From: Alphaproteobacteria bacterium
Lineage (GTDB): Bacteria > Pseudomonadota > Alphaproteobacteria > Rs-D84
Length of the DNA stretch: 64,000 nucleotides
Assembly: GCA_017472065.1 (NCBI GenBank)
Contig: JAFURB010000004.1
Location: forward strand, 17,034 to 81,033
Direction: 5' to 3'
The notes below the pieces were generated by a model. It was not told the DNA's origin and searched no databases. It worked only from the letters and a program-made list of their open reading frames with translations. Positions 36,089 to 58,469 of this stretch are shown piece after piece. A program made the position numbers and the translations under genes. The first letter of the stretch is position 1. The number at the start of each line of letters is the position of its first letter.

Positions 36089-36529
36089 ATGATTGATGCA
36101 AAAGGTATCGAGGCCATAATTCCACATCGTGGAAACATGCGATTGGTTGATGAAATTCGTGAATATTCAGACACATCGGCGGTTGGTATAAAATATGTTC
36201 GTGATGACGAATTTTGGTGCGCGGGACATTTTCCAGACAAACCAATTATGCCCGGTGTTCTGCAGGTCGAAGCGTTGGCACAAACCGCATGCTTTGTCGC
36301 GTTTAATCGCATGGACCCGAATGAGGCCGCACAAACATTGGGATATTTTACCACAATGGAAAAGATTAAATTTTCACATATGGTACACCCGGGTGACAAA
36401 CTGGAATTACATGTCGAATTGTTAATGAGCAAAATGAAACTGTACAAATTCCACGGCATTGCAATGGTGTCTGGCAAAAAGGTAGCCGAGGCAACATTTA
36501 CAGCCGTTCTGCAACATCGTGATTTGTAA
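36089..36529 (+). CDS. fabZ: 3-hydroxyacyl-ACP dehydratase
   Basis: IPHR and GHFPDKPIMPGVLQVEALAQ. Confidence 0.95.
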   Translation: MIDAKGIEAIIPHRGNMRLVDEIREYSDTSAVGIKYVRDDEFWCAGHFPDKPIMPGVLQVEALAQTACFVAFNRMDPNEAAQTLGYFTTMEKIKFSHMVHPGDKLELHVELLMSKMKLYKFHGIAMVSGKKVAEATFTAVLQHRDL

Positions 36530-36552
36530 AAATCCCGCGAAATGCGGGATTT

Positions 36553-36831
36553 TTAATTGCCAAACAGTTTGATACCAATATTATCAAATTCGGGTGGATA
36601 TCCCAATCGTGCGGCCAATTCAAAGAAATGATACACCGGTATGGCCAGGGTACCTTGTTCGTACGCAGTGATAAATTCTGGGGCCGTGTGCAACATTTGG
36701 GCAATTTGTTCCACAGATAAATTTCGGTCACATCGCACAGATTTTATTACATCCCCCAGATATTCATAAAAATCTTGTGTTCCGTCTGGGATTATAAATT
36801 CCAGTGGTAATTGTTTTACATCTATTGTCAT
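36553..36831 (-). CDS. XRE-family HTH protein
   Basis: LGDVIKSVRCDRNLSVEQIAQML...ITAYEQG; RBS GGGGGGA. Confidence 0.8.
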   Translation of the reverse strand: MTIDVKQLPLEFIIPDGTQDFYEYLGDVIKSVRCDRNLSVEQIAQMLHTAPEFITAYEQGTLAIPVYHFFELAARLGYPPEFDNIGIKLFGN

Positions 36832-36847
36832 TTGTCCCCCCGTTGTC

Positions 36848-37036
36848 AAAAAAAATACCACCTAATAAAATTAAGTGGTTGGAGAGTAACAAACTATAGT
36901 AAGCATAGTCGGTGTATTCAATATATTTCACACGTCTCCAACCATTTGTTGTTGGAGATTTTTACGTTCCAAATATATTGGAACAACTTACTATGGGTTC
37001 GTTACCACCCATACTGACAAAATCATCAGTACAATG
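36848..37036 (-). ncRNA. c4-like antisense RNA/attenuator leader, copy 1
   Basis: Promoter TTGTAT-N16-TATAAT (37039-37066); a series of hairpins; antisense segments GTAACGA and ATAGTAAG complementary to downstream CTTACTAT-AGT-TTGTTAC; terminator ACCAC..GTGGT followed by a T run. Confidence 0.7.
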
Positions 37037-37090
37037 GGATTATATACCATATTTATGAAAATACAAATAGGATTTTTTGCTTATATAAAT

Positions 37091-37125
37091 AATAGAATCC
37101 ACAATTGCACTCTGAACTTTGAAAA
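37091..37125 (-). repeat. Solo end of the heptamer element
   Basis: Reverse complement TTTTCAAAGTTCAGAGTGCAATTGTGGATTCTATT matches 56959-57007 apart from two missing heptamer units. Confidence 0.8.
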
Positions 37126-37149
37126 CAATCCCGCGAAATGCGGGATTTT

Positions 37150-37743
37150 TTACAAACATGCAAATGCGGCGGCGTTATTCTTTAACACAAACCAGCCCAT
37201 ACGATAATCTGTTGCATATACGGTTACCAAGAACATCGCAATTATCCCAATTACCAATATAACATTTGATCGTTTGCCACGCATCGCATACAGCGAAATG
37301 TTATAAAACAAAAACAGTATATACGCATCAACCAACATACTGATGACCCATAATGACACGCAATTAAATGCCAGCGCATTTACCCCCAATATCACAGGAT
37401 ACATGAAAAATACAGATGCCAATGCCTTAATCGCGATTTCCCAGTCGCGTTCACCACCGGTTATTTCAGATACCAACATCAACAGTCCGCCCATAACAAA
37501 CAGTATTCCAACCGCCATTACCGGGGTTATAATTAACGCATTGAACAATGCACCAACCGTGAACGATGCACCGGTTAGCATATTAATACCAAATACCAAC
37601 ACGCCCCCCAGCAATCCCCACAGGAACGCTTTGAACATGGCTTCTTCCATATTTCCATCGGCAACAATTTTTGTAAAATAACGGCGCGGATTTATAACAA
37701 TATCACGTACATGTTTTATGGCGCGCTTTAATTTCTTTATCAT
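37150..37743 (-). CDS. Yip1-domain membrane protein
   Basis: IVINPRRYF followed by about five TM helices. Confidence 0.7.
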   Translation of the reverse strand: MIKKLKRAIKHVRDIVINPRRYFTKIVADGNMEEAMFKAFLWGLLGGVLVFGINMLTGASFTVGALFNALIITPVMAVGILFVMGGLLMLVSEITGGERDWEIAIKALASVFFMYPVILGVNALAFNCVSLWVISMLVDAYILFLFYNISLYAMRGKRSNVILVIGIIAMFLVTVYATDYRMGWFVLKNNAAAFACL

Positions 37744-52123: not shown

Positions 52124-52318
52124 TTAATTTTTTGGCATTGAATCAAATGGGTATTCCATCGCAATAACCAGCGATATTTTTTGGTATATATTTAGTGGCC
52201 CACCATGCGCGATTATATGTTTATATTTGGATTCAGTTACACACAAAATATTACACATATCAATAATCGTATATCCGCGCAGTTTTCGCATATATTCTAT
52301 TTCCTGGCCAAATGTCAT
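52124..52318 (-). CDS. Small XRE-like HTH protein
   Basis: FGQEIEYMRKLRGYTIIDMCNIL; RBS AAGGGG. Confidence 0.72.
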   Translation of the reverse strand: MTFGQEIEYMRKLRGYTIIDMCNILCVTESKYKHIIAHGGPLNIYQKISLVIAMEYPFDSMPKN

Positions 52319-52342
52319 GATTATTCCCCTTTTTTGTGCAAG

Positions 52343-52553
52343 TAAAAACCACCACTTTTACAGGGGTGGTCGGGTGTGCTCAAAATCATACAACAAATGA
52401 TCTCGCTGCTTTTGGTAAAACCTATTTTATAACAGCGAACACCCGACCAGGGTCAGGTAAACGATGCGAAAAACATTCGCAACATATTACGACGCAATTC
52501 GCATCGTGTTGTATGGGTCTTGAGCGACCCGAACCCACATCCCTGTGGATTCT
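52343..52553 (-). ncRNA. c4-like antisense RNA/attenuator leader, copy 2
   Basis: -10 TATACT (52559-52564); hairpin GGGTC-GCTCAA-GACCC then ATACAAC, complementary to downstream GTTGTATG-ATT-TTGAGC; TGGTCGGGTGT/ACACCCGACCA helix; terminator ACCACC..GGTGGT-TTTT. Confidence 0.72.
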
Positions 52554-52670
52554 ATGTTAGTATAAACTAATAAAACACCAAAATCCAACACAAAATCAAT
52601 ATCACTGCGTGGCAATAAATATTTATTATTTGCAATTGGCAAAATGTCTGTTATAATCAGTGGGCTTTGC

Positions 52671-52746
52671 GGGTGGTTAGCTCAGTTGGTGAGCCGCGTT
52701 ACCTTGACATCGTAAAGGTCGTCGGTTTCACGGACATAACACCCCC
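52671..52746 (+). pseudogene. Degenerate tandem copy of tRNA-Val(GAC)
   Basis: First 20 nt identical to the tRNA at 52760; anticodon loop TTGACAT kept; D, anticodon and T stems damaged; no CCA. Confidence 0.8.
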
Positions 52747-52759
52747 GAAGAACAGTTTT

Positions 52760-52836
52760 GGGTGGTTAGCTCAGTTGGTTAGAGCGTTACGTTGACATCG
52801 TAAAGGTCGTTGGTTCGAGTCCAATACCACCCACCA
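52760..52836 (+). tRNA. tRNA-Val(GAC)
   Basis: GGGTGGT...ACCACCC-ACCA; anticodon loop TTGACAT; TTCGA in the T loop. Confidence 0.95.
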
Positions 52837-56962: not shown

Positions 56963-57196
56963 CAAAGTTCAGAGTGCAAAGTTCAAAGTGCAATTGTGGA
57001 TTCTATTAATTAAACTTCGATAAATAAAAGTTTATCGCAGTAACTCATAAAGCCGTCACCCCGGCGCAGGCCGGGGTCCATTGCATTCCACCCAGTTTCA
57101 AAATTGAGAAGAACACAGTGGATCCCGGCCTTCGCCGGGATGACGACAGTGTCTAATTGTTCCTCTGAACTTTGCACTATGCACTTTGAACTTTGA
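56961..57196. repeat. Heptamer-array inverted-repeat element enclosing a REP doublet
   Basis: Left arm TTCAAA GTTCAGA GTGCAAA GTTCAAA GTGCAA; right arm TCTGAAC TTTGCAC TATGCAC TTTGAAC TTTGA. Confidence 0.85.
57054..57145. repeat. CGTC-type REP inverted doublet (REPIN-like)
   Basis: CGTCACCCCGGCGCAGGCCGGGGTCCA ... TGGATCCCGGCCTTCGCCGGGATGACG. Confidence 0.85.
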
Positions 57197-57380
57197 TTTA
57201 AACTTTTATTTAGCGAAGTAACATTTTCACAAAAAAATACCCTTGCCTAAAACCGGTAAAACCGTTAGAATACACGACATAGAAAGGGAAAACACATGCC
57301 GAATCTAATGGGACGATTTTCTTAGGCATAAAATCAATTAAAAAATTCCCTGTTTTCTGCATAAATTCACTCCCTATTTT

Positions 57381-58469
57381 GTGCCGAAAATAATCGTCGG
57401 TTTATTTGCCGCACTTTTTGCAATGCTTTGCTGGGGTGGGGATGCAAATGCCGCAACCGTTTTTAGTGGGGCATGTTATAACACGACCGCTAGACATTCT
57501 AAATATTATTATGCGAATTACTCTGGCAATCTTGGAAACGCATATTCATCGAGCGAAGAAGTGGATATTTCCACATATTCATCAGGAACATGTACAGCTG
57601 GAACACAATATGTAATACAAGCAAGTACAAATGGCGAAGCACTTGATATTGGCAATATGGAAACCAGCCTGGCCAGGATTTATTCGTGTACGGCATGTGC
57701 CGATGGATATGAACTGGCGACCAGTGATGGACCATTTATATATGGCAATACCGACACAATTCAATGTAACAGTTTGCTTAATCTTACAGTTCAAGAGTGC
57801 GTGAAAATAAATGCCGGTGGCGGTGGCACCACATGTACATCCAGTAATTGTGTCAGTTCTGATTGGGTCACATACAATAATGCGTATATAAAGCGTACGG
57901 CACGTTCATGCACCGACAGTACAACATGTACATCAACCATACAATATGGATGTAATTATGGATATTATAAGACATCTGGATCGTCGGCCTATTTGACATC
58001 TGCATCTGGATGCAGCAAATGTCCACCATATACAGTAAATGGTACATCGTATGCAACAACAACCGCTATGCGCGATGCAGTCAATGTCCAGTCGTGCGTG
58101 GTTGATGCGGTTGGTGGTGTCACCGAATTCCAAGATGCATCTGGAACATTTGTAATGGCCGCGCCATATGGTATGGAAACCACGCCCCCCAAATATTGCT
58201 CGTTTTCACTGGGCAATTGTGCGGGATATACCGCCGTATGTTCCACAACATCTGGCACGACATATGCCGTCGTATCAGGAACCAAGACAAACAGTACATC
58301 TGGTACATATTGTTGGTGTAATGCAAATGGAAAAAGTTTTCTGGTCGCAAATATGAACAGTTATTCAACCTGCGCGCAAAGTTGCAAAAATGGATGCCAA
58401 ACAGCATTTGTGGGACATTCAGAAAATAACTATAATCCTATGGTTTCGTATACAGCATTAGGATGTTAA
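57381..58469 (+). CDS. Secreted Cys/Thr/Ser-rich protein
   Basis: GTG start; signal peptide (ANA|A); CTACADGY, CNYGYY, CSKCP and YCWC motifs. Confidence 0.75.
   Translation: MPKIIVGLFAALFAMLCWGGDANAATVFSGACYNTTARHSKYYYANYSGNLGNAYSSSEEVDISTYSSGTCTAGTQYVIQASTNGEALDIGNMETSLARIYSCTACADGYELATSDGPFIYGNTDTIQCNSLLNLTVQECVKINAGGGGTTCTSSNCVSSDWVTYNNAYIKRTARSCTDSTTCTSTIQYGCNYGYYKTSGSSAYLTSASGCSKCPPYTVNGTSYATTTAMRDAVNVQSCVVDAVGGVTEFQDASGTFVMAAPYGMETTPPKYCSFSLGNCAGYTAVCSTTSGTTYAVVSGTKTNSTSGTYCWCNANGKSFLVANMNSYSTCAQSCKNGCQTAFVGHSENNYNPMVSYTALGC

Follow-up and report, generated by a model that had tools for sequence, protein, structure and literature searches.

We analysed a 64,000-nucleotide stretch of an alphaproteobacterial genome (assembly GCA_017472065.1, contig JAFURB010000004.1), hereafter referred to as the window. 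At positions 36553-37066 of the window, a small gene of the XRE type, which encodes a protein with a helix-turn-helix (HTH) domain, is preceded on the minus strand by a promoter, a structured leader and a terminator (Table 1). An earlier note on this DNA had described the region as a c4-like antisense or attenuator RNA module that serves a lone XRE-type gene. The layout given there was recovered in full, every listed motif being present at its place on the minus strand in the order promoter, leader, terminator and gene. Based on the present data, we assign a probability of about 0.6 to the reading that 36848-37035 (minus strand) is a structured 5′ leader of ~185 nt which acts as a cis transcription attenuator of the XRE-type gene, and which is part of a family expanded in this lineage, probably a distant offshoot of sRNA-Xcc1. 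The locus combines a promoter, a leader, a stem-loop with a U-run and a nearby gene on the same strand with an antiterminator helix that is mutually exclusive with the alternative pairing and is backed by covariation, as is characteristic of a cis-acting attenuator.

Table 1. Features of the cassette, its boundaries and the second leader copy in the window. Percentages give paired alignment cells.
Feature	Position	Strand	Evidence
Second identical bounding terminator hairpin, behind the membrane-protein gene	37127-37147	plus	exact repeat
Promoter: TTGTAT (37066-37061), 16-nt spacer, TATAAT (37044-37039)	37039-37066	minus	read from sequence
P1, hairpin at the 5′ end of the RNA	37011-37032	minus	95.4% paired; 8/8 pairs with two-sided changes
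Hairpin A (GGGT-loop-ACCC); loop is the 5′ strand of long-range helix P2	36995-37010	minus	stem 93.3% paired
Segment X (ATAGTAAG, 36994-36987), 5′ strand of long-range helix P3	36987-36994	minus	partner 36896-36903 in the minimum-energy fold
P4, variable hairpin	36966-36984	minus	sequence and length vary by copy, hairpin retained
A-run and S1 (TCTCCAAC, 36958-36951); S1 and S2 form P5	36951-36963	minus	P5 98.2% paired
S2 (TGGTTGGAGA), partner common to S1 and S3	36935-36944	minus	S2:S3 96.4% paired
P6 stem with conserved A/U-rich loop	36908-36934	minus	(nearly) invariant columns in alignment A1
Hairpin B (ACTAT-loop-ATAGT); loop is the 3′ strand of P3	36893-36909	minus	stem 98.7% paired
CTTACTAT/AGT/TTGTTAC, ‘target’ stretch of the earlier note	36903-36886	minus	read from sequence
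P2 3′ strand (GTTTGTTAC), partner of the hairpin A loop	36886-36894	minus	minimum-energy fold and covariation
S3 (TCTCCAACCA), putative antiterminator partner of S2; overlaps the terminator base	36876-36885	minus	sequence and covariation
Intrinsic terminator: 10-bp stem (36879-36857), 3-nt loop, T-run	36848-36879	minus	terminator scan; 97.1% paired in the family
Ribosome-binding site (RBS), a G6 run 4 nt before the ATG	36836-36841	minus	read from sequence
XRE-type HTH gene, 92 aa	36553-36831	minus	Pfam HTH_3, 27.4 bits (cut-off 23)
Terminator hairpin common to fabZ and the XRE-type gene	36531-36551	plus	exact repeat: 2 matches, 0 expected
‘Copy 2’ leader, diverged, same architecture	52338-52562	minus	fold −92.2 kcal/mol, z = −8.22

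Leader architecture and two predicted folds

Read in the 5′ to 3′ direction, the leader is composed of P1, hairpin A, segment X, P4, an A-run, S1, a short loop, S2, P6, hairpin B, the 3′ strand of P2, S3 and the terminator. Folding of the 212-nt leader gave −66.3 kcal/mol, as compared to −43.4 ± 4.3 kcal/mol for shuffled sequences (z = −5.28; 0 of 200 shuffles were as good). In this minimum-energy fold, the segments that the earlier note had called antisense, segment X being the second of them, are paired in cis with the segments that it had called targets. The 76 upstream sequences of distinct relatives share a −10-like consensus at −10 to −4 and a TTG at −33 to −30 from the model start, with the −10-like box at a constant distance from P1. 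A consensus promoter scan of the region did not call the TTGTAT/TATAAT promoter, because its −35 element fits at only 3 of 6 positions. Contigs from RNA libraries span 36667-36904 (X17 record 14) and 36678-36859 (X18 record 18), and none lies on 36910-37057; DNA is possible in such libraries, and these contigs show neither transcription nor transcript starts, ends or levels, nor their absence.

The helices were assessed in a large alignment of related leaders. From an alignment of 12 leaders (A1) we built a covariance model (R1) with five local helices, while covariation was counted in an alignment of 76 distinct sequences (A2). In A2, 89.9% of the cells were paired, versus 71.9% after column shuffling (0 of 500 shuffles reached the observed value) and 40-51% when the partners were slid by 1-3 columns. 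Covariation was seen in eight helices. All five pairs of the P2 core, which joins the hairpin A loop to the strand before S3, co-vary (92.3% paired); two-sided changes occur in five of the eight pairs of the alternative helix S2:S3, and one pair of hairpin B is UA in some sequences and AU in others (UA:56 versus AU:16). Paired positions contain 239 G.U cells against 25 A.C cells, which argues that the structure is that of an RNA made from the strand of the downstream gene, and not that of DNA or of an antisense transcript. This imbalance, together with the fact that only a T-run is conserved downstream in 75 relatives, led us to reject a plus-strand cis-antisense RNA (TTGTCA-17-TAAAAT at 36843-36871, terminator-like site at 36934-36959) as a family feature; the terminator-like site is P5 read in reverse after the conserved A-run.

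The long-range pairing was also examined with a duplex test that is free of any alignment. The hairpin A and X segments paired with their own B and P2 segments at a mean energy of −16.7 kcal/mol, versus −7.1 kcal/mol (sd 3.0) for non-cognate combinations, and the cognate was the best partner in 53 of the 76 leaders; weak cognates are mostly model-truncated matches or very distant copies. Among 10 copies examined in the same genome, these two-part addresses are mutually orthogonal. Loci L011 and L012 share their gene and P1, yet their addresses (P2/P3) differ in a compensated way. The fold energy and the covariation thus bear out all helices of the earlier note, and the minimum-energy fold and the duplex test bear out its two-part complementarity. 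Its division into separate antisense and target segments did not survive, as these segments are the strands of a single co-varying intramolecular helix.

A second set of pairings concerns the terminator. The proposal that TCTCCAAC and TCTCCAACCA compete for GTTGGAGA agrees with the alignment, in which S1:S2 and S2:S3 both co-vary, and S1, S2 and S3 vary in concert across subfamilies, copy 2 included. The overlap of the 3′ arm with the terminator was likewise found as proposed, since S3 overlaps the terminator base. Because the last 3-4 nt of S3 are common with the terminator base next to the U-run, S2:S3 would be an antiterminator. Moreover, S3 lies directly 3′ of the P2 strand, so that S2:S3 and the long helix would be incompatible (a zero-length pseudoknot loop), and by the same geometric argument hairpin B and a full P3 would exclude each other.

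We propose that transcription starts just after the TATAAT box and that the leader RNA would adopt one of two mutually exclusive folds. In the OFF fold, the hairpin A loop and X would pair with the hairpin B loop and the segment following it (P2+P3), and the long helix formed in this way would enclose P4, P5 (S1:S2) and P6. S3 would then be free to complete the terminator, and the polymerase would come to a halt around 36848-36855. The ON fold would have locally closed hairpins A and B and an open long helix, while S3 would pair with S2, oust S1 and take 3-4 nt of the terminator base beside the U-run, allowing read-through into the gene. A two-state model of this kind accounts for covariation in the local stems as well as in the long-range helices. 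When the energies of the nested folds were compared, S1:S2 together with the terminator was more stable than S2:S3 in 68 of 70 leaders; on average the OFF state was favoured by 13.0 kcal/mol for the full-length leader and by 8.4 kcal/mol for a transcript that still lacks the 3′ arm of the terminator. Termination is therefore the computed default, and read-through would presumably need an effector or kinetic control. The ON fold may actually be populated, and the balance might be shifted by a protein, RNA or small-molecule effector or by how fast transcription proceeds.

Several points weigh against this proposal. The ON fold averages 13 kcal/mol less stable in the nested-fold calculations, so that it may not form at all, and no effector turned up in the analysis. 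The aligned sequences are related by descent, and five of the counted helices had served to fit A2, so that the counts overstate independence. In addition, A2 does not hold the P3 columns in register (53-58% paired), and the evidence for P3 is therefore the duplex test. Finally, some leaders are arranged in tandem, every copy being equipped with a −10 box and a terminator of its own, and such arrays fit stand-alone small-RNA genes at least as well as leaders.

Like classical terminator/antiterminator leaders, the leader is promoter-proximal, ends in a terminator just before the gene and contains a segment with two possible partners, one of which overlaps the terminator. Unlike classical attenuators, it has no conserved leader peptide, and its switch is coupled to a two-part long-range helix with a different sequence in every copy. 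The covariation of S1, S2 and S3 and this private bipartite helix make clean compensatory-mutation experiments possible. Three further candidates were tried and set aside. A leader peptide (GTG after S2, 55-aa frame) was rejected, since this codon falls within the co-varying P6 stem and other copies, such as L002, lack it. Mimicry of Shine-Dalgarno and anti-Shine-Dalgarno sequences by S2 and by S1 and S3 was not relied on, because the GGAG core that is common in S segments is absent from copy 2. A NusG paralogue as partner was dropped, since only a single NusG was found in this genome, which is 80% complete.

A family of leaders and the genes behind them

A DNA search of relatives matched only the 3′ half of the leader, at many loci per genome and with different genes downstream. 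In the present assembly (0.83 Mb in 17 contigs, ~43% G+C, 80% complete), covariance model R1 gave 20 matches with E-values from 6e-27 to 2.7e-4, which are rough values owing to a shortened calibration. A search of related genomes, a step that the earlier note had suggested, showed that 58 of the 61 genomes examined in the genus contain matches to R1 (150 of them itemised, with 599 more beyond these), and the helices co-vary among the 76 distinct sequences of A2. In the order as a whole, 88 of 101 genomes and 15 of 19 genera contain matches, several of the other genera having a single leader copy. Counts per genome reach 44 candidates scored and are lower bounds. Matches were furthermore obtained in 8 more genomes among 149 from other families of the class (E ≤ 1e-4); all eight are small (0.9-2.3 Mb), and four loci retrieved from them have the same architecture. 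Since the pattern of the copies is conserved in hundreds of loci, it is not a product of chance. The idea of a device for a lone XRE-type gene was accordingly abandoned, as the same leader stands before at least 20 genes of many kinds in this genome. If the attenuator reading holds, one RNA device would control a large share of the variable genes, which encode surface proteins, secreted proteins and small regulators, in an uncultured, host-dependent lineage of gut bacteria that has lost most classical regulators. To our knowledge, one leader per 20-40 kb in a genome of less than 1 Mb is among the densest uses of a single cis-regulatory RNA. The genome appears to fit Candidatus Enterousia (order Rs-D84) as characterised in PMC12306168, and none of the 10 papers listed by a literature search on riboswitches, noncoding RNA, attenuators or leader RNA in this taxon mentioned Enterousia.

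Model R1 overlooks diverged copies, an example being copy 2, the second leader in the window, which had been announced in the earlier note and indeed exists with the same architecture. R1 scores it at only 17 bits (E = 0.037). Copy 2 precedes a 64-aa open reading frame (ORF; 52124-52318, minus strand) for which no Pfam match was found. Just upstream of it lies a 49-nt direct repeat with 80% identity (52696-52744 and 52784-52832), one copy of which is inside a tRNA gene (52760-52833) and the other ~90 nt before that gene. This repeat looks like a partial tRNA duplication of the kind left by integration events.

We examined the gene context of 86 distinct leaders. Seven of them are followed by another leader within 200 nt. 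Behind 69 of the 79 non-tandem leaders we found an ORF on the same strand with a Shine-Dalgarno-like motif, and in 61 of these 69 cases the start codon is at most 30 nt from the U-run. A Pfam scan of 64 downstream products yielded 10 matches to HTH_3, matches to the cysteine-rich repeats Ephrin_rec_like (3), TNFR-like (2) and NCD3G (2), two matches to Flg_new, and one each to Type III DNA methylase, Stealth, OMP beta-barrel and Trypsin; most of the 64 products had no Pfam match. Judged by a crude rule, 32 of 70 distinct downstream ORFs encode a signal peptide. The downstream genes thus specify small HTH proteins or secreted, often cysteine-rich, proteins, and they have no common metabolic theme. 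XRE-type homologs with 75% identity to the product of the present gene are located behind the same leader in another metagenome-assembled genome (MAG).

Two side observations concern these genes. Secreted cysteine-rich proteins are numerous (57381-58469 in the window; loci L033, L034 and L075), some of them matching the eukaryote-type families Ephrin_rec_like, TNFR-like and NCD3G, and they make up a large, fast-evolving share of these reduced gene sets. Furthermore, the RBS behind many leaders is a run of 6-8 G residues, with G8 in the paralogous cassette L012 (at about 2990) and G7 at C16:88562. Runs of this length are slippage-prone and could tune or switch translation.

The tandem arrays consist of 2-4 complete units without a gene between them (L050, L024, L053/L054 and L077). 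At L050, 875-1673 (G073:C1), four leaders stand in a row, and neighbouring units have an identical X segment, which suggests a recent duplication. In one genus (loci L068, L073 and L076; G094), another S2-like/S3-like pair lies between the terminator and the gene, which gives the appearance of two switches in series.

With respect to signalling, GGDEF and RelA_SpoT domains were found in none of 31 genomes of the genus (0/31 each), and no DAC domain was found in the present, 80% complete genome. The lineage appears to be without these common signalling systems.

Probable relationship to sRNA-Xcc1 and alternative readings

The sRNA-Xcc1 family (RF02221) is known from integron cassettes, genomic islands and prophages of Proteobacteria. 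It is reported as an 88-nt RNA of Xanthomonas campestris that gives a ~100-nt band on a Northern blot (PMC2996969). In the Xanthomonas integron cassette that is most widely distributed, it precedes symE (bioRxiv 10.1101/2025.06.18.660453). One Xylella island contains five copies of it in tandem, and in a different Xylella genome it is a neighbour of IsrK and C4 (PMC12189769); in APSE phages it is found before an ORF6N gene (bioRxiv 10.1101/2020.03.17.996009).

When seven loci of the leader family were scanned against Rfam at E ≤ 0.1, one family recurred, namely sRNA-Xcc1. Three distant members match the whole 87-position model with 39.1, 37.4 and 33.7 bits (E = 3e-4 to 7e-3), scores that are below the gathering score of 53 bits. 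The outer helix of the model corresponds to S2:S3 and its inner hairpins to P6, with the same A-rich internal loop, and to hairpin B, so that the three-way junction in which S2:S3 encloses P6 and hairpin B can be aligned one to one. The P6 loop of distant copies contains a small additional hairpin. In a sample of 151 genomes from the phylum, RF02221 has matches in 39, and in 24 of these the match exceeds the cut-off; the present genome has 0 matches, and none appears at E ≤ 10 in 36400-37250.

We also read 20 true sRNA-Xcc1 loci (L095-L114). Upstream of the Rfam model these have a hairpin A and a segment X, which pair with the B loop and the strand before S3. In the duplex test the cognate combinations had a mean of −27.9 kcal/mol versus −20.5 kcal/mol, and the cognate beat the median non-cognate in 18 of 20 loci. 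An upstream domain with this pairing is thus present in both the true sRNA-Xcc1 loci and the leader family, and it is not part of the Rfam model. Searching the 20 true loci with R1 and filters off gave no convincing match, the best being partial (E = 0.13). Because of the sub-threshold matches and the shared architecture, we regard homology between the leader family and sRNA-Xcc1 as reasonably probable, and the leader family is probably a remote, hitherto unrecognised branch of it.

The two families are alike in that both occur in tandem arrays; sRNA-Xcc1 is also carried on mobile DNA (PMC12189769), as the leader cassette may be. They differ in their platforms: the leader family has an intrinsic terminator after S3, whereas sRNA-Xcc1 loci have a terminator-like hairpin in the place of P4 and an RBS directly after S3. 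They also differ in their genes, which here encode small HTH and secreted proteins, whereas sRNA-Xcc1 precedes antirepressor (Bro-N/P22_AR_C), Rha and symE genes, the last according to bioRxiv 10.1101/2025.06.18.660453. Among 10 proteins behind true sRNA-Xcc1 copies, three were of the Bro-N antirepressor type (two with P22_AR_C) and one was Rha. Another difference is that sRNA-Xcc1 is filed as a trans-acting small-RNA gene and not as a leader; the title of Chen et al. 2011 reportedly calls it trans-acting, and the upstream region may already have been described there. In the true loci, the Rfam model covers only the 3′ domain of a longer conserved unit, and at L095 short complementary stretches that flank the Rfam domain could hide the RBS. 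sRNA-Xcc1, which is annotated as trans-acting and virulence-linked in many Proteobacteria, plant-associated ones among them, would in this light look like a domain of a longer two-fold leader with an upstream partner, and such a recasting gives its function a testable mechanistic frame.

The resemblance to phage immunity RNAs that the earlier note had pointed out deserves separate consideration. In phage P4 (seqA/seqB/seqC) and in P1 (a1b1/c4/a2b2), a central segment is complementary to upstream and downstream twins, c4 is released from the leader by RNase P processing as a stable RNA of ~77 nt, and expression of a regulator gene is cut off either by premature termination or at the level of translation. 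The present leader resembles the P1/P7 c4 and P4 CI RNAs in that it is situated in the leader of a transcription unit with segments repeated upstream and downstream of a central segment. A c4/P4-CI-type mechanism is nevertheless a doubtful alternative to cis attenuation. A released small RNA, for example the S2-to-S3 domain as the counterpart of the 88-nt sRNA-Xcc1, would pair in trans with nascent transcripts of the same locus, and pairing with S1/S3 or with the address segments would set termination or translation as a feedback or immunity loop. This would agree with a central segment that is complementary to an upstream and a downstream twin on one transcript, with the private two-part address of each copy and the compensated differences between L011 and L012, and with the self-contained tandem units. 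It would also agree with the ~100-nt RNA that PMC2996969 reports for the sRNA-Xcc1 domain in X. campestris, and with the Bro-N/P22 antirepressor and Rha genes that follow true sRNA-Xcc1 copies (4 of the 10 proteins scanned). Moreover, the terminator-like hairpin after A and X in the sRNA-Xcc1 loci would free a small RNA that contains both antisense segments.

However, the membership in the C4 family that the earlier note suspected was not borne out by the model search that it had called for. Neither Rfam C4 (RF01695) nor c4-a1b1 matched at the gathering score in the whole window, where Rfam reported two tRNAs only, or at E ≤ 10 in 36400-37250, where only terminator look-alikes (Trp_leader and others) appeared below gathering; nor did they match at E ≤ 0.1 in seven family loci or at E ≤ 0.01 in the 20 sRNA-Xcc1 loci. 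The resemblance itself stands, in that sRNA-Xcc1, the closest known family, precedes phage antirepressors and adjoins C4 and IsrK in the Xylella genome mentioned above. C4 lies in prophage or plasmid immunity operons before icd/ant-type genes, and C4 antisense RNA and Icd regulate the expression of Ant according to PMC8201110, whereas the present leader family occurs at 20 or more copies per genome before unrelated genes and outside any prophage context. Its ‘target’ stretch does not cover the RBS but is located upstream of the terminator, ~45 nt from the G-run. Unlike in c4, both strands are in one molecule and paired in the ground state, which leaves them not free for action in trans. P4 is followed by an A-run and not by a U-run, no phage genes are nearby, and the cassette gave no blastn match in phage and plasmid records. 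Finally, neutral compensatory drift also yields divergent helices.

A more far-reaching possibility, which we consider unlikely, is that the leaders are a domesticated phage-type RNA-RNA module of sRNA-Xcc1 stock, c4/P4-CI-like, which has become the main gene-control device of a gut lineage with genomes of less than 1 Mb and in which the S2-to-S3 domain acts in trans. If this were true, 20 to more than 40 genes per genome, mostly for surface or secreted proteins and small HTH regulators, would have a self-terminating leader with a private two-part address, in a lineage without stringent response and cyclic-di-GMP. The S2-to-S3 domain, in which R-C-C/U comes after a helix of 7-9 bp, would be excised in the manner of a tRNA precursor, and the released domain would act on leaders of the same S-type and thereby couple sets of cassettes. 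What is called sRNA-Xcc1 in Proteobacteria would then be the 3′ domain of a longer cis leader and not a free-standing small-RNA gene.

It is improbable that the copies are stand-alone small-RNA genes with their own promoter and terminator, which would act in trans on other mRNAs and have the downstream genes as mere neighbours. Each copy does have a −10-like box and a terminator, and tandem arrays lack intervening genes; five tandem homologues are also reported in Xylella (PMC12189769). The label of sRNA-Xcc1 as trans-acting, which is reportedly in the title of Chen et al. 2011, points in the same direction. However, a further promoter would not fit into the short stretch between the U-run and the start codon that is seen in 61 of the 69 non-tandem copies with a called ORF, and the three-way covariation of S1, S2 and S3, which overlaps the terminator, would have no role in a plain small-RNA gene.

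We give an equally low standing to a riboswitch, in which the same two folds would be governed by a small molecule or ion bound by the P3-P4-P5-P6 junction and the conserved P6 loop. The leaders do combine conserved unpaired junction and loop nucleotides with variable helices and a terminator as expression platform, and they occur in many copies per genome before surface-protein genes, as do cyclic-di-GMP riboswitches. On the other side stand the absence of a metabolic theme among the regulated genes and the phage regulators controlled by related sRNA-Xcc1 loci. The domains for synthesis of second-messenger ligands (cyclic-di-GMP, guanosine tetraphosphate (ppGpp) and cyclic-di-AMP) were, as described above, not found in the genomes searched. 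The view that there is no RNA function at all, with chance hairpins or a DNA-level structure of a mobile element, has hardly any probability: the cassette does appear mobile or rearranged and a repeat resembling a miniature inverted-repeat transposable element (MITE) abuts it, but the excess of G.U over A.C cells, the covariation in eight helices and the conservation across the order and beyond, before unrelated genes, speak against it.

The cassette and its flanks

The cassette of ~600 bp, which comprises the promoter, the leader, the gene and one terminator copy, is bounded by two identical terminator hairpins of 21 nt. Its description as compact and free of phage genes was accurate. The neighbours are ordinary chromosomal genes (infC, lpxD, fabZ and der) and a membrane-protein gene (37150-37743, minus strand), and no integrase, attC site or phage gene was found near the cassette. 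A contig of run X16 connects 36538 with 37140 through 6 other letters; it retains one hairpin and lacks the cassette. At the same locus of a related MAG (lpxD-fabZ-[cassette]-membrane protein-der) the cassette is inverted, and this MAG contains a second cassette copy, with different compensated P2/P3, between another convergent gene pair. These arrangements suggest that the cassette is inserted, inverted or deleted by recombination at the terminator hairpins.

A MITE-like element of ~240 bp (56963-57200), with terminal inverted repeats made of a repeated 16-nt unit, is located directly after a terminator. The sequence of its left end also flanks the 5′ side of the XRE cassette (37085-37125). 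Pieces related to it were found at a dozen or more places in this genome, frequently ~200 nt ahead of other leader copies and at the starts of contigs C5, C6, C9, C11 and C13.

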